32,000 nt of DNA from assembly GCA_004563595.2 (NCBI GenBank), contig CP042461.1, forward strand, positions 60,001 through 92,000. Direction: 5' to 3'. Origin of the DNA: Candidatus Saccharimonadota bacterium. Its GTDB lineage: Bacteria > Patescibacteriota > Gracilibacteria > BD1-5 > UBA6164. The notes beneath the pieces were generated by a model. It had not been told where the DNA came from. It made no database searches and worked only from the letters and a program-made list of their open reading frames with translations. The translations under genes and the position numbers were made by a program. Below are positions 1 to 32,000 of this stretch, in pieces. Positions within the stretch are counted from its first letter, which is position 1. Every line of letters begins with the position of its first letter.

Positions 1-422
1 AGAGTAGATGTTTCAAATTCCTTTAATATAAGTTCAGTTGTATCATATTGTAATAGTGCAAGCTTAACTTTTGATGCAAGGTAGTTTACTATCTTGAGTG
101 TTTTTTTTGCTTTGAGAGAATTATTTCATGATAGTTTTCATTGAGCGAGAGAAAGTCTCTTTGACAACTTTTGTAATTTTTTCTCACTTTTGCTGAGAGT
201 AGCAATTACTGTATCTATACTTTTTATATATTTCTCTCCACGAGATATACTTTTTAAAGCAGTTCTTGATATATCCACTTTATTAATGAGAATAGTTTCT
301 TCTAAAGAAGTCTCTGCATAGGCAAAAGAACCACTTTGAAAAATAAAAGCTATTAACAATAATGAAGTGAAACACTCCTTAATAATCTTCATAAAATAAG
401 AGTTTAAAAAATAATAACCCAT
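1..422 (-). CDS. hypothetical secreted coiled-coil protein (3' end runs off the left edge)
   Basis: Track ORF 138..422(-) stops at a TGA. With TGA=Gly the frame stays open to position 1. N-terminus MKIIKECFTSLLLIAFIFQSGSFAYA/ETS resembles a Sec signal peptide, so the ATG at 392 may be the true start. The rest is K/L/S-rich and heptad-like. No family recognised. Confidence 0.6.
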
Positions 423-457
423 CTATTTTATTTTTTGTTGACCATTAATCAAATAAA

Positions 458-1810
458 TTATTTAGTTAATGAGTAATGCTTTCAAATATATGCTCATATT
501 ATTAAAAACAGTAAATAACTTGTTGCTGCTTCTTCAAATGCGTGAGTGAAATTTGCCATGAAACATAAGCTCAAAAAAGCAGTGAGGAGTCATATAGAAA
601 AATAGGTGGTTGTTTTTTGCATAATTTTATACAAAGCTATACTAATGAATATGAGTAAGCCAAGAAAGAAAAAGAGTCATAAAAAAGATTGTTCTAAAAG
701 TATCTGTACATACCAGTTTTCGGGCAAGTACTTATATACTTCTATAGAGTTTATTGAACTCTTCCATCATACATCAGTTTCAAGTGGACCAATTTGAGTT
801 GCAGGACCACTTGTTCATACTCCACTTCCAATGGGGTTATATAAAAACTTTTTTACAGCAAGAGCAAGATTATCAAATCTATTTATGAGAGATCATAAAT
901 GAAGAAAAAGGCCTCTTTTTATAAACATAATGATAGTTGCAGAAACTGCTATGAGTATAGGAACTATTTTAAGCACCTTTTTTTGCTTGCTCGTGAGCTT
1001 TCACTTAAATATGAATTTATTCAGAAAGTAAAAGAATATAAATGCTCATATCATTAATCCCAACATAGATGTTTTTGAATATGAGAAAAAGACTGATGTG
1101 ACAACAAATAATGAAGGAATGGATATAAAGATACTTCTATATATATGATTTTTTACGGTATCTAATATATATCAAATATATAAAAAGAGGAATACAATAA
1201 GGAATACGGAAAACCTTATTGGTCAACCAAAAGAAGCTTGAAATCTATGATGTCATGAAACATTTTGAGAAAAACTAATACAAGAATTTGCATTATAGGT
1301 AGATACTTTATCTGAGTATCCAAAAAAATCTGAAACAAGAGCTATGTCTCCAAAAATATACCATGGAAGAAAAATAATTAAAATGAGTCATGTTGATGCA
1401 AATACACTTTTTAAAATGGTATCAATTGAATTTCTGATGCTGATAAGAGAAAAACCTGCAATGAGGGTAAAAATAAAAAATACATCATATTTAAACCCCA
1501 GAAGGTTATTTATCCCAACAGAAAAGAATGGAAAAAATATATAGAGGAGTGACGAAAATATAAACGCAACAGAGAATCATAATATATAGTTCCCTTGAAA
1601 TATCTTTCATATTTTAAAATGGTACCTTTTTAAAATACTATATGTTCAAATGAAAAGTAAAAAAATAACTATAAACTCTTTCCAGAATCTAATAATATCA
1701 GTATTGGCTCATAATTTACACTTTAAAATTGTAACAAATAATGCATGGAGGGGTAAAAAGAATGCAAAAAGTATGAGTAAAAGCTTCATAGGAATGTTTC
1801 AGAGTTTCAT
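458..1810 (-). CDS. O-antigen ligase / Wzy_C-family polytopic membrane protein (WaaL/PglL/PilO-like)
   Basis: 450-aa ORF under table 25 (length 1353 nt, TAA stop at 458-460), invisible in the standard track. About 10 hydrophobic segments. Family-like segments: FSYSKTSMLGLMIGAFIFFYF, then the loop LYNPIGSGVGTSGPATQIG...PENWYVQILLEQSFLGLFFFLGLL, which resembles the Wzy_C signature (HN.YLQ.L.E.G..G). Confidence 0.7.
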
Positions 1811-1819
1811 AAATTATAG

Positions 1820-2938
1820 TTATTTAATTAAGTTTTTTAATCATTTTTCAAATATATCTTCAGAAAATTTTTCTGCCTGTTTTCTGCATTTTTCAGGGCT
1901 ATATACTTTGTTTCAGTTATTTATATCAAATTTGAGGAAATTTTCTATAAAATCAGATCAATCCTTTTCAGAGAAAAATTCTCATGTGATTCACTCAGAT
2001 ACTGTTTCAAGTAAGCCTCATCATCTGTATGCAAAGACTGGTTTCCCTGCAGCCATTACTTCTATGGGGACGATTCAGAAATCTTCTTCTCCAGGGAATA
2101 TGAGTCCCTTACTTGATTGAACCAGAGCAACAAGTTCATCTCAGTACTTTGCTCCTGCAAAGTCTATATTACTTATTTTTACTTTGTTTTCGAGATCCGT
2201 TTTATAATTTCCTGATCATACTACAAGGAGGTTGGTCTCAGGCATTTTATTAAATGCTTCTATTGCGATTTCTATTTTTTTGAATTCTGTGAGAGCTGAA
2301 ATTATTATATAGTAATTTTTATAATTGGTTTTTTGTTCCCTGAGAGATTGAAATCGTTTTACCTCAACGGGTGGGTATAAAATATGGGAATCTTTTCTAT
2401 AATATTTTTGAATTCTTCATGCTGTATTCTCTGAATTGGCAATAATGGTGTCTACTCGATTACTTGCTATATAATCCCATTGCCTGAGTTTTAAGAATAA
2501 TTTATTCAAAATAAATCATTTGATTCATGAATCCCATCAGATGTCTTTTTTATATTCATTAGTCCAGTCCCACATATATCTTGCAGGAGAATGATAGTAG
2601 GCAATAAATTGTGTTTCTGGCTTGGTAATCGCACCATGTGCAAATCATGATGAACTTGCTATAACAAGATCATATTTTGAGAAATCAAGACTTTCAACTG
2701 AGCTTGCCATAAAGGGAAGGCAAAACCTTTGATTTTTAAAGAGTTTATATATCTTTTGAGTTTTCAGGTCATAGACTTGTGGGTGGATACGTTCTTTGGG
2801 AAAACTCTCTCAGAGTTTCGTCTCATCATAAATCAAAGTAAATAAATCAGCCTTAGGAAAAATCTGTAGGAGTTTTTCCACTACCTTTTCAGCTCCACCA
2901 AACTTAATCAACATTTCATGTAATATAGCTATTTTCAC
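1820..2938 (-). CDS. family 4 glycosyltransferase (GT4, glycosyl transferase group 1)
   Basis: 372 aa from a GTG start at 2938 (an in-frame TAA lies upstream at 2999-3001). N-terminus (M)KIAILHEMLIKFGGAEKVV is typical of GT4. C-terminal EX7E-type region reads [36 protein letters not shown], with several of these Gly encoded by TGA. TAA stop at 1820-1822, 9 nt before the next gene. Confidence 0.85.
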
Positions 2939-3091
2939 GTCTTTTTTGGTTAAATATTTTACTTTTTTTCAAAGAAAATCTATACAATAAAGGAGATTTT
3001 ATACTTTTTCTCCTTTTAAATATAATTAATTTTTGAAAAAAATGAATTTTATGTTAAAATTTGTACAATTAAATACTAATCTGTCAAAAAA

Positions 3092-3496
3092 GTGATAAAA
3101 AAAATAGCCTTTATTTTTATACTCATAATCTGATTATTAAGTTTTGCAAATGTTTGATTTGCCAAGTGTGAATGAGATGAATGTAAAATAGATTCAATAA
3201 AATTTCAGATTGATGTAAATGACATTACTCCATGACTAGAAATAGAAGAAGGTGATAATGTTGAACAGACAATAAATAGAACGCTTTGAACTATCATACA
3301 AAAGCTTATGATTGCTCTTTGATCATTGTCATTACTTATAATGACAATATGAGGATGATATATGATAATGTATCATGGACAGGATGAGTTATTATCTAAA
3401 TGAAAATCAATATTTTTATCTTGAATTACAGCACTTGTAGTTGCCTTAAGTTCATATTATATGGTAGCATTTTTGAGATATATTTTATATTCATAA
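3092..3496 (+). CDS. VirB2/TrbC-like (T4SS-type) pilin paralog 1
   Basis: 134 aa, GTG start. (M)IKKIAFIFILIIGLLSFANVGFA signal peptide, then two hydrophobic helices separated by a short charged loop: LIMTIGGGYMIMYHGQDELLSKGKSIFLSGITALVVAL. TAA at 3494-3496. Confidence 0.7.
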
Positions 3497-3508
3497 CAGT
3501 AGAAAAAT

Positions 3509-3904
3509 ATGATTAAAAGTTTAGATAAGATTTCATATGCATTTTTATTTGCTTGTGTAAGTAGTTATGTACTCATATCAAAAGTTTTTGCTGCAGCTCC
3601 AACGGTAAATTGTATATGACTTCCTTGATGTGCTGATACGGATGTTGCTAACCCAATACCATCAGACATTAGTAAAAATATATGAACAACTTTGGTGACA
3701 AATATAATATCTCAAATGATTCAGTATGTTGCTGTAGTAGCTGTAATATCATTAATGTTAAGTTGAGTAATGTATCTTGTTTCAGGATGAGAGGAAGAAA
3801 AAACAAAAAGAGCAAAGAGCTGGATTATGTGGTCACTTGTGTGAGTATTTATGTCTATCTTTGCTTACTGAATAGTGAAAATTGTTAATAATTTCTCAAT
3901 TTAA
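3509..3904 (+). CDS. VirB2/TrbC-like pilin paralog 2
   Basis: 131 aa. MIKSLDKISYAFLFACVSSYVLISKVFAAAP signal peptide. Core reads IISQMIQYVAVVAVISLMLSGVMYLVSGGEEEKTKRAKSWIMWSLVGVFMSIFAYGIV. Track ORF 3682..3888 is out of frame with this gene. Confidence 0.75.
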
Positions 3905-3924
3905 TTTATTATTTATATACTGTT

Positions 3925-4314
3925 ATGTTAAAAACATCTTTTTATTCACTTATATGAATATTCTCAAGTACTTCTTTTGTATTTGCTGAGGCTACGAAGG
4001 ATTCCATTTTAAATGGTATTATACCAACCTGAAACAATGTGAATAAAGTTGTTGCAGATATTGATTCTACAGCAGATGGACTGACTGTACTTGATAATAT
4101 CTTTGCCTGAGCAAAAGATTCCATTTTTTGACTTATGATGATACTTTCAATAGGGGTATTTTTATTCTTATGAGTACGTCTGGTAGTAGCAAGAGGAAAT
4201 CCAGAAGAATTTAAAAAAGCTATGATGAGTATGGTATATGCTGTGGCAGGTCTTTTTGTCGTAAGTGCAGCTTGGGCAGCAGTGAAATTGGTATCTGGAC
4301 TTAATATATCTTAA
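3925..4314 (+). CDS. VirB2/TrbC-like pilin paralog 3
   Basis: 129 aa. MLKTSFYSLIGIFSSTSFVFAEA signal peptide. Core reads IFGLMMILSIGVFLFLGVRLVVARGNPEEFKKAMMSMVYAVAGLFVVSAAWAAV. The track only shows antisense ORFs here. Confidence 0.75.
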
Positions 4315-4322
4315 AAAAAAAT

Positions 4323-4733
4323 ATGAAAAATTTTTTCCTGAGTATTCTTTCAATATTAGCAATAAGTGTATCATTCTATGGATGATTATTTGCAGCTTGA
4401 TGTGATTTTGATCCAACAGCATCTTCATCAGCAAAAAAAGCATTAGAGGAATGTTTAAATGGAACAAGTGTAGTTCCCGTAGATAATGTTGATCTTGCAA
4501 CTGGATTCCAAACGGTTATTGTTTGATGGGTAAATAATATAGCTATTCTTTTAGGTATCCTTGCTGTATGATCAATAGTATTTGGATCACTTCTTTTAAC
4601 TTTGAGTACATGAGAAGATGAAAAAATCAAAAAAGCAAAAGACGTTATTAAATGGTGAATTCTAGGGTTTTTAGGAGTGGTTACAGCTTCTACTATTGTA
4701 ACTATTGTGGTTAAGATTATGTATTCTATTTAA
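4323..4733 (+). CDS. VirB2/TrbC-like pilin paralog 4
   Basis: 136 aa. MKNFFLSILSILAISVSFYGGLFAAGC may be a lipobox-like signal. Core reads IVGWVNNIAILLGILAVGSIVFGSLLLTLSTGEDEKIKKAKDVIKWGILGFLGVVTASTIV. Confidence 0.75.
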
Positions 4734-5918: not shown

Positions 5919-7937
5919 ATGCAAGACTTTTTAGACGAGTTAGATCAAGAATTGAGTGGGAAAGAAGTAAGCTCAACAGAATCACAAAATGAGAATAAAT
6001 CTGATACGAATGAATCTATAACTCAGACTCAAAAAACAGAAAAACAAGAAACAAAACAAGACCAAGATGTACCAGAAAAACACTGAGATAATAAAAAACC
6101 TCAACAGGCAAAAGCTCCACAGAATAATCATTTAAAAAAGAATTTTAAAAATAATTACCAAAATAGAAGATCAAATAATTCGAATGAAGTAAGGTGAAAA
6201 TTTAATTCAAATTTTCCTGAAACAAAATTTTATCTTCCATCGTTAAGAGAATGATACACAAGATTTATTCCAATTGGTTGAAATAATGAAACGTGAGCAA
6301 AAAATATGTGAATGGTTCAATATAAAGAAGATATTATTATCATTGATTGTTGAGTTCAATTTGCTGATGCAGATTTACATGGGGTAGATTATTCAATACC
6401 AGATGTTTCTTTTCTTACAAAATATAAAGATAAGATTAAAGGGCTTCTTTTGACTCATGCTCATTTAGATCATATAGGGTCATTAAAACATATATTACCA
6501 GCACTTGGTATGCCAGTTTTATATGGGACAAAGTTAACTCTGGGACTTGCAAAAAAGTCTATCGAAGAAGCAGGTCTTCTTCATCATACTACTTTTGTAG
6601 AAATTGATGCTTGAAGTAGAGAAAAAATAAAAATTTGAGAATTTGATGTAGAATTTTTCAAAGTAAATCACTCTATTCCAGATTGTGCTTGAATATATAT
6701 AGAGTCTCCAGGTGGAGCAAAATTTGTTCATACATGAGACTTTAAGATTGATCATACTCCGGCTATTGATGATCCAGCTGATCTAGATAGAATCGCAGAA
6801 ATTTGAAAAAGAGGTGTTACTATGCTTTTATCTGATTCAACAGGGTCACCTAGAAAAGGTTTTTCTATGTCAGAAAAAGACGTAGGAGAAGCTTTAGACG
6901 AAATCGTAAAAAATCATACAAAAGGAAGACTTATTATTGCTGCATTTTCATCTTGGATTTCAAGAGTACAACAACTTATTGATATATGTGAAAAATATGA
7001 TAAAACAATCTTCTTGAGTGGAAGAAGTATGATTGAGAATATTGCTATAGCAAAAGATCTTTGATACTTAAGAATGAAGCCAGGAACAGTAAAGAAAATG
7101 ACGCCTAAAGCTACCAATGGTATTCTTCCTCATAATCAAGTTATTATTACAACTTGAAGTCAATGAGAAGAATTTTCAGCACTTACGAGAATGTCTGAAT
7201 GAAAACATGCTGCAATTGAAATAGTTTCATGAGATACAGTAGTATTTTCTTCATCAACAGTTCCAGGGAATGAAAAATCAGTTGTTTGAATTATAAATAA
7301 GCTTATTAAATTATGAGCACATGTAATTACAAAAGAAGATAAAAATGTTCATACATGAGGACATGCATTTCAAGAAGAACAAAAAATTATCATAGACTTA
7401 GTAAAACCAAAATATTTTATGCCAGTATACTGAGATTTATATTTCAGAACGCTTCATAAAAGAACAGCTGTTGGTATGGGTTTCAATGAAGAAAATGTTC
7501 TTCTCCTTGAAAATGGGAATATTGTTGACTTTGCTCCAAATGGAACGGTATTTAGATCAAGAATTAAAGCCCCAATTCAAGAGCTTATCATAGATGGTCA
7601 TGGAATGTGAACAGCTACTTCTCATGTTATCAAAGCAAGAGAACAAATGAAAGACTCATGAGTACTTGTTGTTTTATACAAAGTAGATAAGAAAACAAAA
7701 GCTCTCCTTGGTCATATTAAGCTTGAAACAAGAGGTTTAGTATATCTTGAAGAAGTGAGACATATCCATAGAATGATTATTAAAAAATCAAGAGATGCAT
7801 ATGAAAATACTATAAAAGATGTTCCAGATATGGAGGAAAAAGATCTTGTAAAAATTATAAGAACTGACTTAGAAAAATTCCTTCTCCAAAGAATGGATAG
7901 AACTCCAATGATTATTCCACTTGTAGTTGAAGTGTAG
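5919..7937 (+). CDS. rnj: ribonuclease J (metallo-beta-lactamase/beta-CASP) with N-terminal low-complexity extension
   Basis: 672 aa, TAG stop. FIPIGGNNETGAKNMGMVQY, THAHLDHIG (HxHxDH), HTGDFKID, MLLSDSTG, HTGGHAFQEE and FMPVYGD are RNase J landmarks. Many conserved Gly are TGA. Track fragments 6822.. and 7755..7937 are in frame. Confidence 0.93.
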
Positions 7938-9232: not shown

Positions 9233-9928
9233 ATGAGAGTACTATTAAAAATATCATGAGAAGCACTTGCCTGATGAGAAGGCTCAGGCTTAGATTATGT
9301 TACGTTAAATGAAGTATGAGATATGATAAAAGATCTTGTAAGAAATAATATAGAAGTATGAATAGTTGTATGAGCTGGGAATTTTATTAGGTGAGCAGAG
9401 ATAGAAAAAATTAATATAGACAGATGTAATGCAGACAATATGTGAATGCTTGCTATTAATATTAACTCTATTGCACTTTGAGATGTACTTTCTAGAAAAG
9501 GAGTTCATACAAAAATTATGAATTCATTTTGAATTGATGGTATAGTAGAAAGGTTTAATAAGCCTAAAGCCATCAAAGATATAAAAGCATGAAAAGTTAT
9601 TATATTTGGGTGAGGAACATGAAATCCCTATTTTACAACGGATACGGCTTGAGTATTAAGAGCATTAGAAATAGAGGCAGATCTTATGATTAAGGCTACA
9701 AAAGTAGAATGAGTTTTTGATAAAGACCCTATGAAATTTGCAGATGCAGAGTTGATAAAAGATGCAAGCTATGATGAAGTTATAATTAAAAATCTAAGAG
9801 TGATGGATTACACAGCAATTGCTCTTGCAAAAGAAAATAGCTTAAAGCTAAGGGTTGTGAGCCTCTATCATGAAGGAGCAATCATGAGAGCTATTTTATG
9901 AAAAGACGAATGAACATTAATTAGTTAA
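9233..9928 (+). CDS. pyrH: UMP kinase
   Basis: 231 aa. MRVLLKISGEALAG (Gly at 9257-9259 is TGA), [34 protein letters not shown] and KATKVEGVFDKDP are PyrH signatures. Confidence 0.93.
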
Positions 9929-10027: not shown

Positions 10028-10270
10028 ATGTTAGGAAAATTAAAGAAAAGAAAAAGACTAAGAGTTCATGGATTCATGAAAAGAAGCTCAACTGTATGAG
10101 GGAGAAATGTCTTAAAAAATAGAAGAAGGAAAGGAAGACATATATTAGCAGTAAGTTACCCAAAAAGATACCAAGAAATTAATGGGAAAGCTAAAATGCA
10201 TATTATTGCTTGAGGTACAGCAAAAAAATCACCTTTTGATGGAAAAGGAAACTATGTTAAAAGAAAATAA
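10028..10270 (+). CDS. rpmH: ribosomal protein L34 with C-terminal extension
   Basis: 80 aa. The [37 protein letters not shown] core matches L34. About 37 extra residues follow (YPKRYQEINGKAKMHIIAGGTAKKSPFDGKGNYVKRK) before the TAA at 10268-10270. Confidence 0.85.
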
Positions 10271-10293: not shown

Positions 10294-10653
10294 GTGATTT
10301 CAAAAAAATATAGATTACATGAAAGAGAAGTGAAAAAGGTTTTACAAAAATGAAAGCCTTTTTTTTCTTACTCTATTGTATTGAATTATATGAAAAACAA
10401 AGTATGATATTCAAGGTTTGCCATCGTTATTTGAGCAAAATCAGTTACTCATAATGTGACAAGAAATTTTTTTAGAAGAAGATTTTATGACCTTGCTTGA
10501 GAAAAACGAGAGAGTAAACAAACTGAAAATTACGACTATGTTTTTGTAGTAAAAAAGAAGACGAAATTAGATAAAAATAATGAAAAATGTGTAAAAGATT
10601 TTCTAACAGATATTACATTTCTTGCAAAGAAAATACTTCCTAAACAAAAATAA
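10294..10653 (+). CDS. rnpA: ribonuclease P protein component
   Basis: 119 aa, GTG start (an in-frame TAG lies at 10285-10287). LHEREVKKVLQKGKPF...RFAIVIGAKSVTHNVTRNFFRRRFYD fits the RnpA RNR-motif region. Lies in the conserved position between rpmH and yidC. Confidence 0.8.
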
Positions 10654-11816
10654 TGAAAAAAATATTAGATATCCTCATCATCGCTCTATTAATTGTATTG
10701 CTTGTAAATCTATTTAATGGGAATAAAGAAACGGAACTTACAAATGGGAAGCTTCTATTTGAAGCTACAGATTCATCATATACAATTCCTGCATCTGTAG
10801 GACTTAAAATCATAAATAATTCTGTAGAAGATGTTTCAATTCATAGTTGTAACGATGTGAAAGTAAATATATCATGAGAAAATATAGTTTTTTCAGAAGA
10901 TTTTTGTAAAGATGTTACCATTGCTGCTGGTGAAGAAACAGTCCTTGATTATCAAGATCAATTTTCTCAGTTTGAACAAGTATGAAAATATGTTTTTGAT
11001 ATACAAGTATGAGATAAACAACACCTTTCTGGTTTCGAAATTGAAAATAAATGAGCAATTAAGAAAATTTTTACGACCCTCTTTTATGCTCCAATATATA
11101 ACTTAATGATATTTTTGGTTGAGTTTTTTGGAAATTCACTCTGATGGGCTATTGTTTCAATCACTATAATTATTAGATTAGTTTTATTATGGCCTCAACA
11201 TAAAATGATGTTAAGCCAAAAGAAGCTTCAGGCAATTCAACCAAAAATAAAAGATATTCAAGATAAGTATAAATGAAACCAGCAAATGCTTGGAATGAAA
11301 ATGATGGAACTTTATAAAAAGGAAAAAGTAAATCCTATGGGATCATGTGGTTTTCTTTTAATTCAGATGCCTATATTACTTGTGATATATAATATTATTT
11401 TATGAATAAAAGACCCTTCAAACTTATATCACCTCTATGAATTCCTATCAGGATTTTCACTCGCTTCTATGTCTTCTAACTTCTTTGGTCTGGACTTGTT
11501 ATCAGCAGGGTGAGTGGCGTGAGCAATATTGGCTGTTTCAGTATGACTCATTCAGTTTGTTCAAATAAAGCTTTCACTGGCTGATAAAAAAATAACTTCT
11601 TCAAAGGTAGTGTTAGAAAAGAAAAAGGATACCAATAGTTATTCTCAACTTATGCCTGACCCTGAAATGATGAATAAATTTATGTTGTATGGAATGCCAT
11701 CAATGGTTGTAGTATTTACCTTTACTCTCTTTGCTTGAGTTGGTATCTACTGGGGTATGTCGACACTATTTATGGTTTTTCAACAATTAATTGTGAATAA
11801 AATACTAAAAAAGTAA
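10653..11816 (+). CDS. yidC: membrane protein insertase YidC with an N-terminal extracytoplasmic domain of about 140 aa
   Basis: 387 aa. The ATG overlaps the rnpA stop (taATG). Core reads LQAIQPKIKDIQDKYKGNQQMLGMKMMELYKKEKVNPMGSCGFLLIQMPILLVIY ... MLYGMPSMVVVFTFTLFAGVGIYWGMSTLFMVFQQ. I checked the frame codon by codon to the TAA at 11814-11816. Confidence 0.92.
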
Positions 11817-11904: not shown

Positions 11905-12585
11905 ATGTCAGCAAGAAAAATATTCATTTCGTTTATATTGTTAACTATGGTAACACCTACTTTTGCATATGAAGCAGTAGAATGTTCTAGTGATGCTGTA
12001 TATGCAGCAAACTCTTGTGGTCAATGTTTTGACGGAGGTAGTAAAGGTCAATGAGAATACGTATGATTATTAAGTGATGATTGGATTAATAATACTGAAA
12101 CAAAAAAATTATTATTCAAAGAACAACAAGAGTTTCCTCAAATGGTAAACTTAGCTTCAGATTCAGTAACTTGGTCTCAAGATCCATCAAATGAAGATTT
12201 CTGGGAATATACTCCAGAGTTTAATAACTTATTTTCAGCTGATGAAGGAGGTTATATCTTAGACGCTGGTCAAACAGTAACTTGGTTAAGATCAAAAGTA
12301 TGATATGCTTATAAAATAGATAAAAATACGGTTCCATTAGATGGAAATGTAGGTCTCCTTGTATTCCCAATTACTGTTCATTCAATTGGTGACGATGGTG
12401 ATATTGCAATAGATGATGAAGAATTAAATGAATGTGTTCTTTATAAATCAGGTGAACCTGGAGAAGTTACTACTTCACCAGAACCAAAAAAACTACCAGA
12501 CACAGGTCCAGCAGAGTTTATGCTACTTGCATTACTTGCAATGATCCTAGGACTTGGAATACTCAAAGTAAGAGCGAACTCTTAA
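11905..12585 (+). CDS. LPXTG-anchored surface protein (sortase substrate)
   Basis: 226 aa. Signal peptide MSARKIFISFILLTMVTPTFA/YEA. C-terminal sorting signal LPDTG (12493-12507), then hydrophobic PAEFMLLALLAMILGLGIL and the basic tail KVRANS. Confidence 0.8.
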
Positions 12586-16932: not shown

Positions 16933-19821
16933 ATGAAATATATTAAAACAGCTATTATAGCAATATTCTTATTTGTGTCACCTTCCCAGGTGGCCTTTTG
17001 AGCATGATGAATAGAAATGGAAAGTTGTTCTTCAGGTGTATATAGCGCTTTTTATCCAAGTTCTTGTTCAGTATGTTGATTTGGGACTCAAAGACTTTAC
17101 GAATGAGAAGATACAGATTTCTGGGACTTTTATAATAGTACAGATTCAAATGAAGAAATATTTGCATCATCAAGTAATGCAAGTGTTACCGATTTTTGAT
17201 GATATTTAAATGATGAAAGTCTTTCATGATTATGACTGAGATCAACTTGGACACCAGTTAACTTGAGCCATAATTCAGCAGTAATATTTTTCGTAGATAA
17301 CTTAAGGCTCACATCAAGACCACCTGATGTGAATACACCAGTATGAAGAATTGATTATTTTTTGAGGTGAGCTCCAGTAGTATCAAATTGAAATTTCTCA
17401 TTTACTTGAGAAAGAGGATATCGTGAATGAACGGAAAGCTTAGTGAATTGAGAGTATGTACTTGATGCGCCTAATTTTATAGTTGACCCTGATCCAGTAA
17501 GTCAAAAAAGTATAAATACATCGGATATATTTGAACATAATGAATGTTATGTTATGTTACCAGCTTGGTGTTGAGATGGGTTAGTTACAAATTGAGAAAC
17601 ATGTGATCCACTAGATCCAGCAACAAGTGCTTGATGTAACCCACTTACCTGCCAACCATTCCCTACATTTGTACCGTTTATGGCAGTAGATATTGTCGAT
17701 GACAATGCTGACGATTTAGATGGGGTACAATGAGATGATACTCAAACTGTAAATGTTGGTTCTGGATCAACTTTTAGAGTTACATTAACAAATGCTTGAA
17801 CAGACGCTTTAGAAAATATAACTCTCCTAGATATAGTAGCTCCAGAGTGTGCATGATCTGCAACTCTGACTGGTACAACGTTTACTTGACCATCTACATG
17901 GACAAATCTTTCAGCTACCTGAGTTATTAATGGATCTTTATTACCATTAATATGAAGCCTGAGTTATAATTGTAACTTGGATAATATATCAGTAGATATC
18001 ACAAATACGATAACTGCAGCTTGATTATGAGTGAATAGTAGTCTGATTACATGAGCACTTCCTGATACAACTCTCGTTGTTGCTTGAACTGGAAGCACGA
18101 ATTTATGTTGAAATGGAATTATCGAAACACCAGAAGTATGTGATTTTGCCGATCCAACACAAACAGCTTGGGGAACAAGTGGATGTACAGCCACCTGTCA
18201 ACCAGATAATGGATGAGGATGAGGTGGAACTTGACCACAATGTAGAGCTATAGATGCATGAACATATGATAGTACGACGAATATACGTAGTGGAATAGTA
18301 TGTACTTGAAATAGTGATGTAAATTCTATTAGACTTGATTGTTGAAATGGAACAAACCTATACGGGTCTGGATCAACGGCTACATTCTCTTGTGATTATA
18401 GTGGGAATGCAAATCCAGATGAGATTAAACCAATTTGTTATGTAGCATGAAGTACTTGATTAACAAATCCTAATTCATCTTCATGGTCAACTCGTCTTGC
18501 TTGTACACCAGGAAGACCAAATGGTGGCTGAGGAGGAGGTTGAGGCTGAGGAGGTTTTTCAAAAACATGTTGAGATGGAGTGGTTCAAAGACCAAATGAT
18601 TCTTGATTCAATGAACAATGTGATACTACTCAAACTTGGTGTAGTGCTACATGTAAAGCACTTGTAACAACACAACCTTTTGGAGGAGTAGTGAAAATGT
18701 TACCAGGGAATGATTATGTTATTATTGGAGATGGAATGAATCCATATGAGGCTCATACTTTGAGTTACCCATATATTGAAAATTTATCAGAAGACCCAAA
18801 TACGGATATAGCATTTGATGAAATTTGTGTATATAATACATCAGGGTCATCACTTTCAGGAGATGGAACTCAATGTGAACCTATGGGAGTAATCTATCCA
18901 TGAGAAAAAGCATATTTTGGAAGAACTCCAGATTATAGGTGAAATACTTCTGGTATAACATCTGGTAATATAGGAGAAAATGTTTTAAGGTATTCTGTTA
19001 AAAATGATGGAACAGACTATCCGGATGCATTCTTTTCAACGGAGTTAAAAGTAAGAGTTTCAAAACCTTCTATTGCAACGGTATGAGGATGAACGAGTTT
19101 CTTAAACAATACATCTGCAGTAAAAACTCAAGATATTGCAAAATGAGAACATAAAGATGCAAATAAGAACTTTGTATGAGCATGAGTTTGAGAAAATGGC
19201 TTGAGTTATACAAAAGATGTTTCAGACACTGCCTCAGTAAATAAAATATGAGAAGAATGAAGTGTATATAATAATACACTGAATGGATCAATAAATGATC
19301 TATGATCAAATTGATGAACCCGTACAGATATAAATGACTTCGATAATTATAATGGTATAGAAAATGTTTATATCTTAAAGAATTATAACTTTAAGATCGA
19401 ATCTGACCTATTCTCAAGCATCAATTGACCAAGAACATATGTTATAGAGAATTGAAACCTTATTATTTCTTCTGATATAACTTATTCAGATAATATAGCA
19501 TTTGTTGTAAAGTGATGAAATATTATTATAGATGAAGAAGTAAGAAGTATTAAAGGAGTCTATATCTCTATTCCAAAATGATCGAGGTGATGAAAGTTTA
19601 TATGACTATGAACAACAAATAATATATTAAAAGTAGAATGATCATTGTATTGAAATATAGAGAATCTTGTAAGCAAGAGAACCTATATAAATGAAAATGC
19701 AAGCTGACAAATTAGTGTATGAACAATTGTAAGTTTTGGTTCGAGTATCTTTAGGAAACCTGCACCACTTACTTGAAAATTTATATGAGAATATTTAGAA
19801 GCTGAAAAGATAGCAAAATAA
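16933..19821 (+). CDS. large secreted Cys-rich-repeat surface protein (adhesin-like, 962 aa)
   Basis: Signal peptide MKYIKTAIIAIFLFVSPSQVAFG. Three CxDG...E.CD repeats of the myxococcal Cys-rich / DUF4215 type: WCGDGLVTNGETCDPLD, LCGNGIIETPEVCDFAD and TCGDGVVQRPNDSGFNEQCD. A DUF11/CARDB-like stretch reads QTVNVGSGSTFRVTLTNAGTDALENITLLD. Poly-Gly linkers are present. Track ORF 18691..18903 is in frame. TAA at 19819-19821. Confidence 0.8.
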
Positions 19822-19888: not shown

Positions 19889-20413
19889 ATGAAAATAACA
19901 ATTTTTTGATTCGCATGAAGTGGAACATCAACGATATGAAAACTTCTTGCAGAACAGATGAATTATAACTTTATGTCGAGTGGAAATATCATGAGATCTT
20001 GGGCTGAAGACTTAGGGTTAACTATTTATGATTTTGAAGATACTGTCATAAAAGATGATTCAAATTTTGATTTAAAATTAGATCAAAAAGTAGCAAATTA
20101 TTGAAAAGATAATAGTGATTTTATTTTTGAAAGCCGTTTGGCTTGGCATTTTATACCAGATTCAATTAAAATTTTTTTAAAGTGTAATACAGATGAAAGG
20201 TATAGAAGAATACATAAAAGAGAAAAATGATCTCATGAAGATATCATATCAAAAAATGAAAAAAGAGAATCAGATCTTGTGGAGAGATATAATAATGTGT
20301 ATCCACATATAAACTTTCCACCAGAGGAGACTGATTTTGATATAGTTATTGATGCCACTCATATTACTCCAGAAGAAATAATTACGCTTATTTGAGAAAA
20401 AATAAAATGATAA
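19889..20413 (+). CDS. cytidylate kinase family protein (archaeal-type, Cytidylate_kin2-like P-loop kinase)
   Basis: 174 aa. MKITIFGFAGSGTSTIGKLLAEQM P-loop (Gly via TGA). FIFESRLAWHFIP, IFLKCNTDERYRRIHKRE and EKRESDLVERY match the short CMP-kinase architecture. Confidence 0.7.
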
Positions 20414-21063
20414 AAATACATATTATATCTATATTTCCTGAAGCTTTTGAATCATACTTTTCTTCGAGTATTATTTGAAGAGCTATAAAAAACTGACTTA
20501 TGGATCCAGTTTTTTATAAGTTAGGAGACTTCTCGGATAAGAAATTTAAACATGTAGATGATAATGCTTATGGTATGCATGGGCAAGTGATATCTCCAGA
20601 ACCACTCTCATGAGCTTTAGAGTGAATTTTTTCTCAATTATGACACAGAGTACCAGTTGTATATTTAACTCCTGGATGAGAGCTCTTACAGCAAGAAAAA
20701 ATAGAAAATTATTATGACACTCTTTGATGAGAATTTATAATAATTTGCTGACACTATGAATGAATTGATCAAAGGATAATAGATTTGTATGTAACACATG
20801 AAGTTTCAATTTGAGAATACGTCTTATCAAGCTGAGAATTATCAGCTATGGTTTTTATTGATTCACTTGTGAGAAACATCCCGGGAGTTTTATGAAATAA
20901 AGATTCACTGGAGGAAGATAGTTTTTCGAAAAAATTTGATAGACAAAAAGAGTATCCTGTATATACTCGTCCGAGGGAATTTATGTGATTGGAGGTGCCA
21001 GAGGTACTTTTTTCTGGAAATCATAAAAAAATTGAAGAATGGAAAAAAAATAATTTAAAATAA
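20407..21063 (+). CDS. trmD: tRNA (guanine37-N1)-methyltransferase
   Basis: 218 aa. Overlaps the previous gene by 7 nt. Core reads [53 protein letters not shown], followed by YTRPREF. Confidence 0.92.
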
Positions 21064-21672: not shown

Positions 21673-22992
21673 TTATTTCTTAACTGCAGCTTTTTTTACT
21701 TCAAAGAAGCTATCAATAAGTTTTCTATATTTTACTCTTTGTTTGAGTTCTTCATAGTATTTATTTCCTGGAATATAGAGTTCTTCCAATCTTTTTAATA
21801 CATCTTTAGAACCAAATCTTGTAAGAATAGTTTTAATTTCTTCTTCCATTTCTGTGTCAGAAACTTCAAGTTTTTCAAGTTCAGCAAGTTTGTGAAGAAT
21901 AAGTTCTCCTTGTAATCTCTTTGTTGCTGTTGGTTTTACATTTGTTTCTTTATATTCTTCTTCTGATAGTTTAAGACTTTCTAAATAGTCAGATACTTTT
22001 ATATTTTGTTGACCTAAATTTTCTTTTATTTCAGTATATACTTTTTCTATTTGGGTTTTAAGTATTCCATCTCATAGATCAAGTTTTGTTACTTTTAGAA
22101 GTGCATCTATAAGTTGTGTTTCTTCTTCCATTCTTGCATTTGATTCTTTCGTATCAGTGATTTCTTCTTTGATAAGTTTTTTAAATCCATCAAGGTCAAG
22201 TTTTTGTCCTCTGAGTTGTTCTATAAATTCAGGAGTAAATTCTGGTTTTACTGCTTTTTCAAGTTTATTTATTGTTACTTTGAATTTTGTTTCTTTTCCT
22301 TTAAATGCATCGTTATGATAGTCTTTCGGAAATACTACATCAAGCTCTAATGAATCTCATAATTGAGCTCATACCATGTCTTCTTCAAAACCAGGAACCA
22401 GTACATTTGATCCAAGTACAATTGGGTAATCTTTCATAGATGTTGATTCAAGGGAAACTCCATTTTCAAACCCTTCAGTATCAATGGTAACTTTATCACC
22501 CATTTTTACTTTTGATTTCTTATCTGTTACTTCTTCAAATTTTGTAAATTTTGTTTCTATTTCTTCTAAAGATTTTTTTACTTCAGCAGCACTTACAGAA
22601 ATAGCTTTTTTAGTAAGTTTGATTTTTTTGTATTTTGCATCAATTTCAATTTCTGGAAGTACTTCTATATGAACTCTGATTTTAAGAGGGCTTTCTGAAA
22701 TAATTTCTTTTATTTCTGCTTGAGCAACAGGAACAACTTTTTCATTTCTGAGAGCTTCTCTATACATATTATCAATAGCAAAATCTATAGTTATTTTACT
22801 AATATAATCTTCTCCATATTGTCTAACTATGATATTTTCAGGTATTTTTGCTCCTTTTCTAAAACCCTTTATGTCAGCATTTTTTTCAATATGAGCTATT
22901 GCTTTTTTTCTATACTTCGCAATGTTTTTTGCATCTTCTTCTATGATGAGCTCCACTATTGATTTTGGAAGTAAATTTTTTTCTATTTTCAT
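21673..22992 (-). CDS. tig: trigger factor
   Basis: 439 aa. Track ORF 22369..22992(-) is the N-terminal 207 aa (IKGFRKGAKIPENII ribosome-binding motif). It continues through TGA codons (FEEDMVGAQLGDSLELDVVFPKDYH, FKBP-type PPIase region) to the TAA at 21673-21675. Confidence 0.92.
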
Positions 22993-25907: not shown

Positions 25908-28334
25908 ATGGCAGACAAAAAAATTGTTGACGATTATTATTCAACTGTGGCTTCTTGAGAAGGAAGTGACAGTTCTTCAGAGTGAGAAAAAAAAATAAAA
26001 ATTAAACCAAAGAGGAAAATTGTAATAAAAAAACCTACAGAGAAAGCTCCTATTTCGGATAAAGAAATAATAACTGTAGATAAATGAGAAAAAAAAGAAC
26101 TCAAAAAACCTTTTATAAAAAAGGCATATTCTTCAAAAAATGTAGTTCAAACAATGACGGTTGTTAAGAGAGAACCTATTAAAGTTGTAAGAAGATCGGA
26201 AAGAAAACCAACAGAGAATAAACCTTATGAAAAAAAGAATACTTCTTCATCTGCAGCTCCATTTAAAACTTCATGAACTTCTCAAAATACTGAAACATGA
26301 GAGAAAAAGAATGATTTTAAATGAAATAAATTTAAAAAAACTCATTTCAAGGCAGGTAAAACATGACCAAATGATAAGAAAGAAGAAGGGGATAAAAAAT
26401 CAACACTCTGAGGTGGTTATAAGAAAACAAGGTGAAGGTTTCAATACTGAAGAGAAAAAGAAGTCACTTTTACAAGATCAAATAAAATAGCAAAAAAGAA
26501 AAAAGAAGAAAAAAACATTGATGAAATTACACAAGATTTAGTTGATCGTAAGTGACAAATAGTAACTGTCTCTGATTTTTTAACTTTGAAAGAGTTTTCA
26601 GAAAAAATTTGAATCGTTTTGCCGAGACTCATGGCTGAGTTTATGAAAAATGGTATGATGGTAAATATTAATTCAAAAATTGATTTTGATTCTGCTTCTA
26701 TTGTAGCAGAATCTTTCGAGGTTATTATTGAAAGAGATAATTCAGAATGAGTAAAAGTTGAGGATATACTTGAGTGAAACTTATCTGAATTACTTTCTGA
26801 GGATGATGATTCAAAATTAAAACCACGTTCACCTGTTATAAGTATTATGTGACATGTTGATCATGGGAAGACTTCACTTTTAGATTATATTAGAGAATCT
26901 AAGGTTACAGCAGGTGAGGCTGGATGAATTACTCAAAGTATATGAGCATATCAAGTAAATCATGGAGATCATAAAATTACATTTTTAGATACTCCTTGAC
27001 ATGAAGCCTTTACAATTATGAGAGCAAGGTGAGCAAAATCTACGGATATTGCTATTTTAGTTGTAGCTGCTGATGAATGAGTAAAACCTCAAACAATAGA
27101 AAGTATTAATCATGCAAAAGAAGCAGATATTCCTGTGATAGTTGCTATTAATAAAATGGATAAAGAATGAGCAAATCCTGATCATGTAAAATGACAATTA
27201 GCAGAACATTGATTAACTCCAGAAGATTGGGGTGGAGATACTCCAATGGTACCAGTATCAGCGCATACATGATTTTGAATAGATGAACTTCTTGAAATTA
27301 TTCTTTTGGTAGCAGAAATGAAAGAGTTAAAAGCAAATCCTGATAGAGCATGAATTGCAACAGTGATTGAGGCACACCTTGATCATAAACTATGACCAGT
27401 TGCTACGGTTCTTATGAATGCATGAATACTTTCAAAATGAGATAATGTTGTATGTCATGACTCATTCTGAAAAATTAAAATACTGAAGGACTACGCTTCT
27501 AAAAATATTAAATCAGTATGACCATCTGAACCAGTGTTGATAGTTTGACTGGATAAGGTTGTAGAAGGATGAGCTATCTTACAAGTTGTTGAATCTCAAG
27601 AGTTAGCAAGAAAAAAAGCAACGGAATATAAGAGTATTATCTCAAACAGAAAAAAAGCAGGAGAATCAAGTTTAGATTTATTGATGTCAAAAATTAAAGC
27701 TTGAAATTTAAAACAATTAAAGATTGTATTAAAGGCTGATACCAATGGTGCACTTGAGGCTATTAAAGGAGCACTGACAAAATTATCAACTCCAGAAACA
27801 ACAGTATCAATTATTCATTCATGAGTGTGAACTATTACTGAAGGGGATATCTTGATGAGTGAATGAAGTCAGGCAATTCTTATCTGATTTAATGTTGGAT
27901 TACTTCCAAATGCAAAATCTCTTATCCAAAGCTCTTGAGTAGAACATCTTAATAGTAATATTATTTATCATATTACAGAGAGAATTGAGAAGATTGTAAG
28001 TTGAATGTTAGATCCAAGAGAGGTTGAAATTTCTCTTGGATATGCAAGAGTATGATGAATCTTCTTTACTGATAAAAAATTCATGGTTATTTGATTAAAA
28101 TTAAAAGAATTTAAAGATGATGGTGAATTAAATAAAATACAAAAATGAGCTAAAGTAAGAGTAATAAGAAAGAAAAAAATGATTTGAACATGAAAAATTG
28201 AATCATTAAAACAATGAATGCTAGATGTAAAAGAACTTGAATGACCAATCGAATGTTGAATTAAATTTGTATGAAATCTCAGGATAGAAGAATGAGATGA
28301 ATTAGAAATATATAAAATTGAAATACATAAATAA
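25908..28334 (+). CDS. infB: translation initiation factor IF-2
   Basis: 808 aa. SIMGHVDHGKTSLLD (Gly is the TGA at 26850-26852), EAGGITQSIGAY, DTPGHEAF (TGA at 26997-26999), RARGAKSTDIAILVVAADEGV, AINKMDK and SAHTGFGIDELL. Has a K-rich low-complexity N-terminus. Dozens of in-frame TGA codons. Confidence 0.97.
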
Positions 28335-28366
28335 AATAAAGCATTTTAATATTAATAAAATGAATT

Positions 28367-28795
28367 ATGTCTATGCTCGATAACATAAAAATACTTGAGA
28401 GTTTGAGTCTTCGAGAAAGAAATGACTTAAGCTTATTTTGTCAAAAAAAGTATTTAAAAAAGGGCGAAGTATTATTCTTTGAATGAGAAAGTGCGAGTGC
28501 AATGTATATTTTAGCTGATTGATCAATAGAAATCTCTAAAAAACATGATTGAGAAGATGTATTACTTTGAAATGTACATGCAGAAGAAATATTATGAGAA
28601 ATGGCTTTATTCTGAGAAAACTCAAAAAGAATGGCGACAGCTAAAGCTTTAGAAGATACAATTTTGATTACTATTTTATCGTTTTCTTTAGATGAGATTA
28701 TTCATAAATACCCTGATTTATTAGAAAAAATCAAGAATATTATTGAGGAGAGAATAGTAAATAATAAGATTACAGAGACAGCCTCGGAGTTATAA
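28367..28795 (+). CDS. stand-alone cyclic-nucleotide-binding domain protein (CAP effector domain, no HTH)
   Basis: 142 aa. LFFEGESASAMYILADGSIEI, then GEMALFGENSKRMATAKAL, which fits the phosphate-binding-cassette pattern GE.AL...R.A(T/S). Ends after the C-helix with no DNA-binding domain. Confidence 0.75.
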
Positions 28796-28898
28796 TTGCA
28801 AAGAGCGGAGAGTATTTTATATTAAAAGTAAAAAAGATTTGCATTAATATCATTTATGCATACACTTTTGGCACTTTTCTAATTTTAATTGACCATAT

Positions 28899-29129
28899 AT
28901 GTCAAATAAACAAGATAAAATTGAGGTAGAGTGAACATTGATTAAAGCTTTACCTGGCCTGGTTTTTGATATTCAATTACCAGAGGAGTTTTGATGATGA
29001 ATTATTCAATGATATTTAAGTTGAAAAATGAGAAATAATTTTATTAAACTTATTGAATGAGATAAGGTCCTAGTAGAATTAAGTCCATATGACTTAACAA
29101 AATGAAGAATCATTTTTAGAAAAAAATAA
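28899..29129 (+). CDS. infA: translation initiation factor IF-1
   Basis: 76 aa. KIEVEGTLIKALPGLVFDIQL...[38 protein letters not shown]. 8 of its 9 Gly codons are TGA, so it is completely absent from the track. Confidence 0.93.
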
Positions 29130-29170
29130 TTTATTTTTTGCTTTTTTAAAGCACCTAATTTTAAGTGAAC

Positions 29171-29287
29171 ATGAAAGTAAGAGCATCAGTTAAAAAAATT
29201 TGCAATCATTGTCAAACTGTAAAAAGAAGATGAATTGTTAGAGTTATATGTAAAGTTGATCCAAAGCATAAACAAAGACAAGGGTAA
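29171..29287 (+). CDS. rpmJ: ribosomal protein L36
   Basis: 38 aa: [38 protein letters not shown]. Confidence 0.93.
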
Positions 29288-29350
29288 TTCTTTGAGAACA
29301 ATGAGTGTTTAGATTAATAATCAATTATATTATATATTAATTATTTAGGA

Positions 29351-29719
29351 ATGGCAAGAATTGCTTGAGTAAATTTACCAAATTGAAAACATGCTGAAAT
29401 AGCATTAACATATATATATGGTATTGGAAAAACGGTTTCAAATGAAATCTTAGTAAAAGTTTGAATTGAAAAAACAAGAAAAATTGAAACTTTATCAGAA
29501 GATGAATTAGATCAAATCAGAGATGAGATTAAATCTGAATTCGTTGTTGAATGAGATCTGAGAAGATTGGTGGTAGGTAATATTAAAAGATTACAAGAAA
29601 TCAACTGTTATAGAGGACAAAGACATAGAAAGAGACTTCCTGTAAGAGGACAAAGTACAAAAACAAATGCAAAAACAAGAAAATGAAAATCTACAGCTGT
29701 AGCTGGAAAAAAGAAATAA
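29351..29719 (+). CDS. rpsM: ribosomal protein S13
   Basis: 122 aa. MARIAGVNLP (TGA at 29366-29368), [43 protein letters not shown]. Confidence 0.96.
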
Positions 29720-29748
29720 TATTTATACTTTAAATACTATAATAAATT

Positions 29749-30138
29749 ATGGCTAATACTGTAAAAAAAAGTAAAAAAACGAGGAACGTTATTCCTCACT
29801 GACAAGTACATATTCAAGCATCATTTAATAATACTATTATAAGTGTTACAGATGAAAAAGGGAATGTTCTTACTTGGGCTACAGGTGGAAGCGCTTGATT
29901 TAAGTGAGCAAGAGAATCAACTCCTTACGCTGCTCAAATTACTGCTGAACAAGCTGTAAAAAAAGCTAAAACTCTTCATTCTATTGAATCAGTTGATGTA
30001 TATGTAAAATGAATTGGTATTGGAAGAGAACAGGCAATTAGAGGTATTATATCTGGAGGTGTTGAATTAAAATCAATCTTTGATATTACTCCAATTCCAC
30101 ATAACGGATGTAGAAAAAAGAAAGTAAGAAAACTTTAA
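29749..30138 (+). CDS. rpsK: ribosomal protein S11
   Basis: 129 aa. [43 protein letters not shown]...[17 protein letters not shown]. Confidence 0.96.
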
Positions 30139-30210
30139 TATTATATATAAATTGCAATTGATGTTTCATTTGTAATTATAAGCTATTAATTATTAACTAT
30201 TAAGTAAGAC

Positions 30211-30834
30211 ATGAGGTATACTTGACCAAAGAAAAAACTTTGTAGAAGAGAGGGTGTCAACCTATTTGGTACGGAAAAATATGACCTAACTAAATGAAAG
30301 AGAGGGCCACTAAGAAGTAGAAAAACGAGTGAATACGGTTCTCAATTGAGAAAAAAACAATTAGCGAAAAGAATGTTTGGTTTATCTGAAAAACAATTTG
30401 CTTCTTATTTTACAAAAGCTCAAAAATCTAAAGCAGAGGGAACAACATGAGAAAAAATGTTGAGACTATTAGAATTAAGATTAGATAATGTTGTTTATAG
30501 GGCAAATTTTGCTAGAACAAGAATCCAATCAAGACAATTTGTTTCACATGCACATTTTACTGTTAATGGAGTTAAGGTTGATGTTCCTTCAATTTCTGTG
30601 AAAATATGAGATGTTATTGCTCTGAGAGATAAATTAAAAGAAAGTCCTTTATATAAAACTCTATTAGAAGAGTTAGAAGAATTTTCAAAACAAAATAAAG
30701 GAAAGGTTTCTTCTTGTAAGTGGATCGATGTTGATTCAAAAAAACTTACAATTACGATCAAGTCTCTCCCTACATTGGAAGATTTTGAACAAATAATTGA
30801 TATTCAAAAAATAGTAGAATTCTACTCTAAATAA
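30211..30834 (+). CDS. rpsD: ribosomal protein S4
   Basis: 207 aa. [20 protein letters not shown] (TGA at 30223-30225), YGSQLRKKQ, and the S4 domain [39 protein letters not shown]. Confidence 0.96.
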
Positions 30835-30864
30835 TTTTAATTATTTTCATAATCAAAAACAAAT

Positions 30865-31845
30865 ATGCATATTATTCATAATACAATAGGGGTTCCTAAA
30901 ATAACTCAAAAAGACGGAGATAATAATTCATCTTTATTTGCAGTTGGCCCATTACCAAAATGATACGGTGTTACATTAGGAAATTCACTCAGAAGAATAC
31001 TTCTTTCTTCTATACCGGGAACAAAAGTTACAGGAATAAAAGTTTCATGAGTAAATCATGAATATTCTACACTTCCTTGAATAAAAGATAGCATCATTGA
31101 TATCATACTAAACTTAAAAGATTTAGTATTAGAAAAAGAAGAAATTTGAGTTGTTTGGTTAAAACTTTCAAAATCAAAATCTGGAAAAGTAACGGCTGCT
31201 GATATAAAAGCACCTGCTTGAGTAGAAATCTTAAATAAAGATCTCTACATAACAGAAATTGATAAAGATGGGTTGGAATTAAATATTGATATAAGAGTTG
31301 AAAAAGGAGTTGGATATCTAACGGTTGAAGAACTTAAAGAAAAAGAAGAAGATGTTGAAGTGTTACTTGTTGATACAAACTTTTCTCCAGTATTAAATGT
31401 AAAATATAGTATTGAGCATGCAAGATTCTGAGACATAACGAACCTTGATTCTCTTGAGATGGAAGTAATTACAAATGGAGCAATATCTTCAGTTGAAGCA
31501 TTACAGTTCTCAGGAAATATGCTTACTTCATATTTTTCAATCTTTAATGAAGAATCACTTCAAGTTGAAGGGCAATTCATTAGTGATGTAAAAGACCTTA
31601 TAAATAAAGAAAAAGAAGAAGTACAAGAAGAATTAGAAAAAGAAACATATACTCCGATTGAAATAATGTGATTATCTCCACGTACATTAAATGCATTAAT
31701 AAATGGGAATATACTTTCTATAGAACAATTAACAAAATGTACTGAGACAAAGCTTTCTTCTATCAAATGATTTGGTAAAAAAGCTATGACTGAAATTAGA
31801 AATTCTCTTGCAGAAAGAGATTTAAAACTTTTAGGAGACGACTAA
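30865..31845 (+). CDS. rpoA: DNA-directed RNA polymerase alpha subunit
   Basis: 326 aa. [47 protein letters not shown], and a C-terminal HhH domain LSPRTLNALINGNILSIEQL...IKGFGKKAMTEI. Confidence 0.96.
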
Positions 31846-31875
31846 TATTAAATATTTATTTTTTAATAAAGTAAA

Positions 31876-32000
31876 ATGAGACATAGAGTCAGAAAACATC
31901 TAAAATTTAGCAACAAAAGTTTTGCTCATAGAAAATCTATGGAAAGAAATTTGTTAACTTCATTTTTCATGCATAAGTCTATAAAAACTACTGAAAAAAA
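31876..32000 (+). CDS. rplQ: ribosomal protein L17 (5' part; runs off the right edge)
   Basis: MRHRVRKHLKFSNKSFAHRKSMERNLLTSFFMHKSIKTTEK matches the L17 N-terminus. Lies in the canonical position after rpoA. Confidence 0.9.
   Translation, partial: MRHRVRKHLKFSNKSFAHRKSMERNLLTSFFMHKSIKTTEK

Follow-up and report, generated by a model that had tools for sequence, protein, structure and literature searches.

UGA is read as glycine throughout a 32-kb chromosomal window of a Gracilibacteria bacterium

This analysis concerns the meaning of the codon TGA in a 32,000-nucleotide stretch of bacterial DNA, positions 60,001 to 92,000 of contig CP042461.1 (assembly GCA_004563595.2), which we call the window. 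An earlier inspection of the letters alone (the sequence-only reading) had proposed that TGA is decoded as glycine across the whole window, as in translation table 25, and that the open reading frames (ORFs) of the standard code are an artefact. Both proposals hold: practically all genes are translated through UGA, whose meaning is glycine, and UAA and UAG are the only stops. Once TGA is read through, 33 genes fill 92.2% of the window, whose GC content is 29.4%. For the Pfam scan of these genes each TGA was replaced by X, which kept the glycine hypothesis from biasing the result; full-length matches were found for RNase J, PyrH, L34, RnpA, YidC, Cmk, TrmD and Tig, and for IF-2, IF-1, L36, S13, S11, S4 and RpoA. 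The annotated features, with window coordinates and protein lengths in amino acids (aa), are as follows.

1-392, minus strand: 881-aa protein, partial (first 130 codons); its ORF runs left of the window.
First in window order of the annotated genes: GT4/GT1 glycosyltransferase (Pfam).
3092-3496, 3509-3904, 3925-4314 and 4323-4733, plus strand: four tandem T4SS-pilin-like paralogs (PF18895), with 5-10 TGA each.
Between the pilin-like proteins and RNase J: zinc peptidase (Pfam).
5919-7937, plus strand: RNase J, 672 aa, 23 TGA; the second G of IPIGG (motif start 6267) is TGA 6279-6281.
9233-9928, plus strand: pyrH (UMP kinase), 17 TGA, including 9257 (KISGEAL).
10028-10270, plus strand: L34, 80 aa; the Pfam L34 match spans residues 6-42.
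10294-10653, plus strand: rnpA, 119 aa from GTG 10294 (Pfam Ribonuclease_P).
10653-11816, plus strand: yidC, 11 TGA; TGG at 11751 is Trp (IYWG).
11905-12585: 226-aa protein without a Pfam match.
16933-19821, plus strand: secreted Gly/Cys-rich protein, 962 aa, 70 TGA (7.3% of codons), without a Pfam match.
Just 5' of trmD and overlapping its ATG, plus strand: cmk (Pfam).
20407-21063, plus strand: trmD, 14 TGA, including 20749 and 20761 (GHYEG).
Between trmD and tig: double-zinc-ribbon protein (Pfam).
21673-22992, minus strand: tig (trigger factor), 439 aa, only 3 TGA, with the window's longest TGA-free stretch (207 codons).
Between tig and infB: KH/R3H (KhpB-like) protein (Pfam).
25908-28334, plus strand: infB (IF-2), 808 aa (Pfam GTP_EFTU and IF-2), 51 TGA; the TGA at 26850 is a G of GHVDHGKT, that at 26997 the G of DTPGHEAF, and TGG 27228 is the Trp of EDWGG.
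Between infB and infA: cyclic-nucleotide (cNMP)-binding protein (Pfam).
28899-29129, plus strand: infA (IF-1), 76 aa, 8 TGA, of which 28932, 29022, 29058 and 29103 face E. coli Gly.
29171-29287, plus strand: rpmJ (L36), 38 aa; its lone TGA, at 29231, faces Gly.
29351-29719, plus strand: rpsM (S13), 5 TGA, including 29366 (MARIAG).
29749-30138, plus strand: rpsK (S11), 4 TGA, each facing E. coli Gly.
30211-30834, plus strand: rpsD (S4), 4 TGA, including 30223 (MRYTG).
30865-31845, plus strand: rpoA, 326 aa, 8 TGA.
Right edge of the window: L17, start only, 41 codons, 0 TGA.

The reading frames themselves show that TGA is not a stop. When TAA, TAG and TGA all terminate, the longest stop-to-stop ORF has 220 aa and ORFs of at least 100 aa make up 25% of the window. 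Under table 11, with ATG, GTG and TTG starts and a minimum of 60 aa, 43 ORFs are obtained (mean 83 aa, maximum 207 aa), and they cover 29% of the window, compared with 92% for the genes called under table 25. With TAA and TAG as the sole stops, ORFs of 1299, 965, 808 and 708 aa emerge, while dropping TAA or TAG from the stops rather than TGA brings no similar gain in length. The 33 genes contain 403 in-frame TGA among 9,841 codons, and 32 of them have at least one; the sole TGA-free gene is the L17 fragment. TGA is not avoided in frame: its in-frame and off-frame counts are 392 and 640, compared with 0 and 754 for TAA and 0 and 390 for TAG. In an earlier set of 32 genes, the longest stretch free of TGA took up 35% of a gene on average. 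The 30 complete coding sequences first called end in TAA (28) or TAG (2), just as the sequence-only reading had reported. It had also judged that standard-code annotation would miss or truncate about 90% of the genes, which is correct in kind and too low in number, because TGA lies in 32 of the 33 genes and the fraction here is ~97%.

The standard code is the default assumption, and under it these TGA codons would be true stops in pseudogenes or sites of local recoding, such as selenocysteine insertion or programmed readthrough. The 403 codons, however, are spread over nearly every gene, including those for essential ribosomal proteins, IF-1, IF-2 and RpoA, and pseudogene decay would yield in-frame TAA and TAG, of which there are none. 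When TGA is read through, protein lengths resemble those of the E. coli orthologs (window/E. coli: S11 129/129, S4 207/206, L36 38/38, S13 122/118, RpoA 326/329, IF-1 76/72, Tig 439/432).

A rival reading takes UGA as tryptophan, as in the table 4 code of the Mycoplasma/Spiroplasma type, and in its favour tables 4 and 25 give the same ORF lengths and the same coding density. The residues that TGA faces in orthologs speak against it. We aligned the E. coli K-12 orthologs of 15 genes to the X-masked window proteins. These alignments cover 122 TGA codons, of which 69 face Gly, none Trp and one Cys. Where the context is well aligned, Gly stands opposite 58 of 91 TGA codons (64%) and Trp again opposite none; with a background of 8.6% Gly, the binomial probability of this result is 7e-39, and the GGN codons, which serve as a benchmark, face Gly in 45 of 64 cases (70%). 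The other residues facing well-aligned TGA are mostly Ala, Asn, Asp, Arg or Glu. Summed over the TGA columns, BLOSUM62 scores are 308 for G, 9 for N, 2 for S and −217 for W, and as a control the same sum, applied to the 43 sense codons that have at least 8 columns, points to the standard amino acid in 40.

The glycines that the sequence-only reading had picked out as TGA-encoded, namely those listed above in IF-2, S13, S4, PyrH and the GHYEGID motif of TrmD, together with the EGT, SGKMR and KGRI glycines of IF-1 (28932, 29022 and 29103), are all in-frame TGA codons that face Gly in E. coli. Since E. coli has no RNase J, we compared that enzyme with B. subtilis RNase J1 (PDB 3zq4), in which 14 of 19 placeable TGA face Gly, including the IPIGG position. 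Amino acid composition points in the same direction. GGN codons alone account for 3.75% Gly, rising to 7.8% with TGA, and Trp stands at 0.5% under table 25; table 4 would imply an implausible 4.6% Trp and leave Gly at just 3.75%. TGA is the commonest Gly codon in the window, with 392 occurrences versus 362 for all GGN together, or ~52% of Gly codons.

Of 9 TGG codons in the alignments, 4 face Trp, one of them in the EDWGG of IF-2. The sequence-only reading had noted TGG as Trp there and in the IYWG of YidC, and this much is borne out; its further step, that TGG as Trp excludes table 4, fails, since TGG means Trp in that table as well. What does exclude table 4 is the glycines that TGA faces, together with composition, and Codetta, too, infers Gly for this assembly. 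Pipelines at JGI/IMG, Logan and ENA do hold window genes with Trp at TGA, as described below, yet we consider a tryptophan meaning extremely improbable.

Table-25 translations from the window, when looked up, matched exactly the GenBank entries for 'Candidatus Gracilibacteria bacterium 28_42_T64' on a 1,343,103-bp contig, in agreement with the Gracilibacteria-type source proposed from the letters. The GenBank identities include QFR38666 for PyrH, QFR38667 for L34, QFR38668 for an 87-aa RnpA fragment, QFR38676 for Tig, QFR38680.1 for IF-2, and QFR38682-87 for IF-1 (QFR38682.1), L36, S13, S11, S4 and RpoA. This closed genome has 1.34 Mb, 28.87% GC and 33 tRNA genes; its authors wrote that UGA as a sense codon was 'required' for gene prediction and used Prodigal with code 25, and they detected prfA and no prfB, the gene for release factor 2 (RF2) (Sieber et al., 2019, mBio, PMC6851277). 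In the Figure 4 source data of Shulgina and Eddy (2021, eLife, PMC8629427), GCA_004563595.2 corresponds to GTDB s__MAAV01 sp004563595, and Codetta assigns UGA to Gly and CGA to Arg and leaves CGG uninferred.

The same look-up found versions of window proteins made with table 4, with Trp at every TGA, for RpoA, Tig, S4, S11 and a 450-aa membrane protein. The NCBI, JGI/IMG, Logan and ENA collections contain these versions, which lie on a 493,167-bp contig. QFR38657 and the table-4 version of the membrane protein fall in one 90%-identity cluster, and the JGI/Logan/ENA version of IF-2 shares a 90%-identity cluster with the window IF-2. In the contig index, the table-25 RpoA had no record under its GenBank identity; the Trp version is recorded. 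The gene calls on the JGI contig agree with our own gene set. The 90%-identity cluster of IF-1 also includes 31-aa 'IF-1' fragments, on contigs of up to 399 kb, that look like standard-code truncations in relatives.

As for how UGA is decoded, we infer from the lineage and the literature that this genome would use a dedicated tRNA(UCA) and would have no RF2. Such a tRNA, carrying Gly identity elements (G1:C72, C2:G71, G3:C70 and U73) and charged by glycyl-tRNA synthetase (GlyRS), would decode UGA, and with prfB absent it would have no competitor for the codon. The source genome's tRNA(UCA) would be expected to resemble GCGGGGGTAACATAAAAGAGTGAGTGTACTAAGGCTTCAACCCTTGGGTGTGC[C/G]AGTTCAAACCT[G/C]GTCCCCCGCTCCA. 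A low GC content (29%) would be consistent with the usual codon-capture route.

We searched GTDB species genomes with a pattern made up of anticodon UCA, U8, A14, U33, the T-loop and the four Gly identity elements. It matched at least 120 loci, and ARAGORN confirms a tRNA(UCA) in 97 among the matches listed. A nearly invariant 79-nt tRNA(UCA), GCG[G/A]GGGTAACATAAAAGAGTGAGTGTACTAAGGCTTCAACCCTTGGGTGT...CGCTCCA, occurs in 63 among the matches listed (for example L016 6814-6892, L086 4640-4718 and L013 4438-4516), and all 63 copies lie on contigs labelled Gracilibacteria, 'Peribacteria', Patescibacteria group, Altimarinus or unclassified 'bacterium'. A 74-nt form adds ~30 more among the matches listed, on contigs labelled Absconditabacterales or 'Peribacteria'. 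The restriction of the 79-nt form to these lineages among the matches listed and its strong conservation are independent evidence for the decoding step. The Gracilibacteria tRNA(UCA) consists of 76 nt plus CCA and has an unusual long D-arm (TAACATAAAAGAGTGAGTGTA).

This tRNA also bears on selenocysteine. ARAGORN calls tRNA(UCA) 'tRNA-SeC' from the anticodon alone, which would suit recoding under the standard code. An Rfam scan of four related loci (L086, L027, L016 and L046) nevertheless gave no tRNA-Sec match; the ordinary tRNA family was matched by the 79-nt copy in L086 (45.9 bits) and the 74-nt form in L027 (59.2 bits), and the 79-nt copies in L016 and L046 went unreported at the gathering threshold. 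In the alignments, moreover, TGA faces Gly and not Cys or selenocysteine, the one Cys among 122 positions being the sole case. The standard code, whether through pseudogenes or recoding, is in our judgement a vanishingly small prospect.

The surroundings of tRNA(UCA) recur among relatives. A tRNA-Gly(GCC) lies 14-42 nt 3' of it in nine loci among the matches listed, a 110-aa basic protein (MANSHGLKSSIVKKQAAARKL...DFYGMPR, without a Pfam domain) is encoded just downstream in 35 of the 63 loci, and a divergent gene for a ~245-aa PF05552 membrane protein lies upstream in 21 of the 63. Searches for homologs of these two proteins returned none from the source genome among the best 120 matches per search. 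Separately, a contig labelled Anaerolineaceae (CAZCDK010000023.1) carries, at L012 16-90, a 75-nt tRNA(UCA) that looks conventional and has Gly acceptor identity, and a few single matches among the sequences listed resemble it. It may stem from a contaminating code-25 organism, or be a Gly-inserting suppressor tRNA outside the candidate phyla radiation (CPR).

A further possibility is that UGA is ambiguous, being mainly glycine with some context-dependent termination or Trp insertion. The TGA share of Gly codons does differ from gene to gene: it is 14-16% in trigger factor (16%), the zinc-ribbon protein and the 226-aa protein, 31-45% in S13, S11, S4 and RpoA, and 68-89% in IF-1, IF-2, PyrH, TrmD and Cmk. 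Selection against a slightly error-prone codon could lie behind this spread, as could chance or a codon bias linked to expression. Cmk ends in AAA TGA TAA. Proteomics of another BD1-5 bacterium found 97 Gly-unique and 3 Trp-unique peptides, and at top stringency 1 peptide each for Trp, Ala, Lys and Asp versus 40 for Gly (Hanke et al., 2014, PMC4032931). On the other side, prfB is reported absent from the source genome (PMC6851277), ortholog-like protein lengths arise only with full readthrough, and no gene requires a TGA stop. Ambiguity of this kind seems to us very unlikely; a weak form of it, with minor mis-decoding or leaky termination at UGA, would be compatible with the sequence.

Several observations count against a glycine meaning for UGA here, or against the proposed route to it. 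About 36% of the well-aligned TGA face residues other than Gly, a share to which that of GGN (30%) is comparable. The JGI contig flanks show no tRNA gene within 10 kb on either side of the window, nor is there one inside it (scans of the window with ARAGORN and against Rfam gave neither a tRNA gene nor an Rfam family), and the source genome's tRNA(UCA) is not among the at least 120 GTDB loci listed. Because this tRNA was not recovered, the tRNA decoding step is one that we infer for this genome. The Gly identity elements of the tRNAs that were found were imposed by the search pattern and, being built into it, are not independent evidence. Finally, the protein-level proof comes from another BD1-5 bacterium and not from this organism. 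With these points taken into account, we are nearly certain that the window is part of the chromosome of 'Candidatus Gracilibacteria bacterium 28_42_T64' and that this organism uses table 25, with UGA as Gly, UGG as Trp, and only UAA and UAG as stops.

Comparison with known codes places the window firmly within the SR1/Gracilibacteria code. It shares with table 25 the Gly meaning of UGA, the Trp meaning of UGG, the UAA and UAG stops, a low-GC CPR genome and a prfB that is reported absent; the organism group is the same, GenBank annotates the source genome under table 25, and no difference is detectable, TGA being the most used single Gly codon in the window. Relative to the 28_42_T64 genome (GCA_004563595.2, PMC6851277), the fourteen window proteins looked up under table 25 agree at every residue and GC is 29.4% in the window and 28.87% in the genome; the GenBank annotation differs from ours in minor respects only (RnpA has 87 aa there and 119 aa from GTG 10294 here). 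The table 4 codes of Mycoplasmatales, Entomoplasmatales and some insect endosymbionts have in common with it the change of UGA from stop to sense, a small AT-rich genome and the loss of RF2, but here the amino acid is Gly and not Trp, and the lineage's decoding tRNA carries Gly rather than Trp identity elements. The variant of Absconditabacterales (UGA as Gly plus CGA and CGG as Trp, PMC8629427) belongs to a sister CPR lineage; the two share UGA as Gly, and the window likewise has very few CGA and CGG codons, whereas for GCA_004563595.2 Codetta gives CGA as Arg and makes no call for CGG.

The arginine codons raise the question of a second departure from table 25. CGA occurs in frame five times in the window (2354, 2456, 10507, 25584 and 28412), CGG once (5556), and CGC is absent. 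Just one CGA or CGG codon is covered by the E. coli alignments, and the part of RnpA where it occurs aligns poorly. The two CGA codons of the glycosyltransferase (…SNRVDTII… and …VEVKRF…) are at places where GT4 motifs commonly have Arg. CGG, and perhaps CGA, might be unassigned or moving to a new meaning, as in Absconditabacterales, because the source data list no tRNA(ACG), tRNA(UCG) or tRNA(CCG) for the assembly and Codetta does not infer CGG (PMC8629427). We think such a departure doubtful, with the chances clearly against it.

The remaining genes offer some observations of their own. The four pilin-like paralogs (3092-4733) are small membrane proteins of 129-136 aa, each with a signal peptide; three came from our own ORF scan and the fourth from public gene calls, the first paralog (3092-3496) having been missed by the ATG-only scan because it starts with GTG. 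L34 has 80 aa compared with 46 aa in E. coli, with a basic tail of ~35 aa (YPKRYQEINGKAKMHIIAGGTAKKSPFDGKGNYVKRK) past the domain that contains one TGA, and GenBank and other pipelines annotate it in the same way. GenBank's RnpA (QFR38668.1, an 87-aa 'hypothetical protein' from ATG 10390) is probably mis-started: its Pfam Ribonuclease_P match begins only at profile position 35, the ORF extends upstream to GTG 10294 to give 119 aa (MISKKYRLHEREVKKVLQKGKPFF...), and JGI, Logan and ENA have a 119-aa product with a Ribonuclease_P match at rnpA.

The 962-aa secreted protein contains poly-Gly runs of 6 (18211-18228) and 11 (18523-18555) residues in which TGA and GGN alternate, and near its N-terminus it has a Cys motif, CSS..Y....SC..C, similar to the one in the 226-aa protein (11905-12585). 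At the 3' end of cmk (20401-20413), the Gly codon TGA stands immediately before the TAA stop and the gene overlaps the trmD ATG at 20407 (AAAATGATAA); table 11 would end cmk one codon early, at this TGA. A minus-strand ORF at 28844-29269 was rejected as a gene, being a shadow of plus-strand infA and rpmJ. Tandem repeats and the composition profile of the window showed nothing relevant. To the left of the window on the JGI contig (L131 14700-21353) lies a giant ORF of >4,161 aa without a Pfam match, preceded by the 881-aa protein that reaches into the window at 1-392.

The glycine meaning of UGA is already known: in the lineage since 2013 (table 25 goes back to Campbell et al., 2013, and Rinke et al., 2013, in the form in which PMC8629427 cites them), from proteomics since 2014, and for this genome since its deposition with code 25 in 2019. 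In view of the published genome, its code-25 deposit and the Codetta inference, reading UGA as Gly in this window is correct and not new, and it adds no scientific novelty. Its significance is for annotation. Table 11 shatters 32 of the 33 genes and a table-4 fallback puts Trp in place of Gly, and both kinds of mistranslation circulate in public protein collections.

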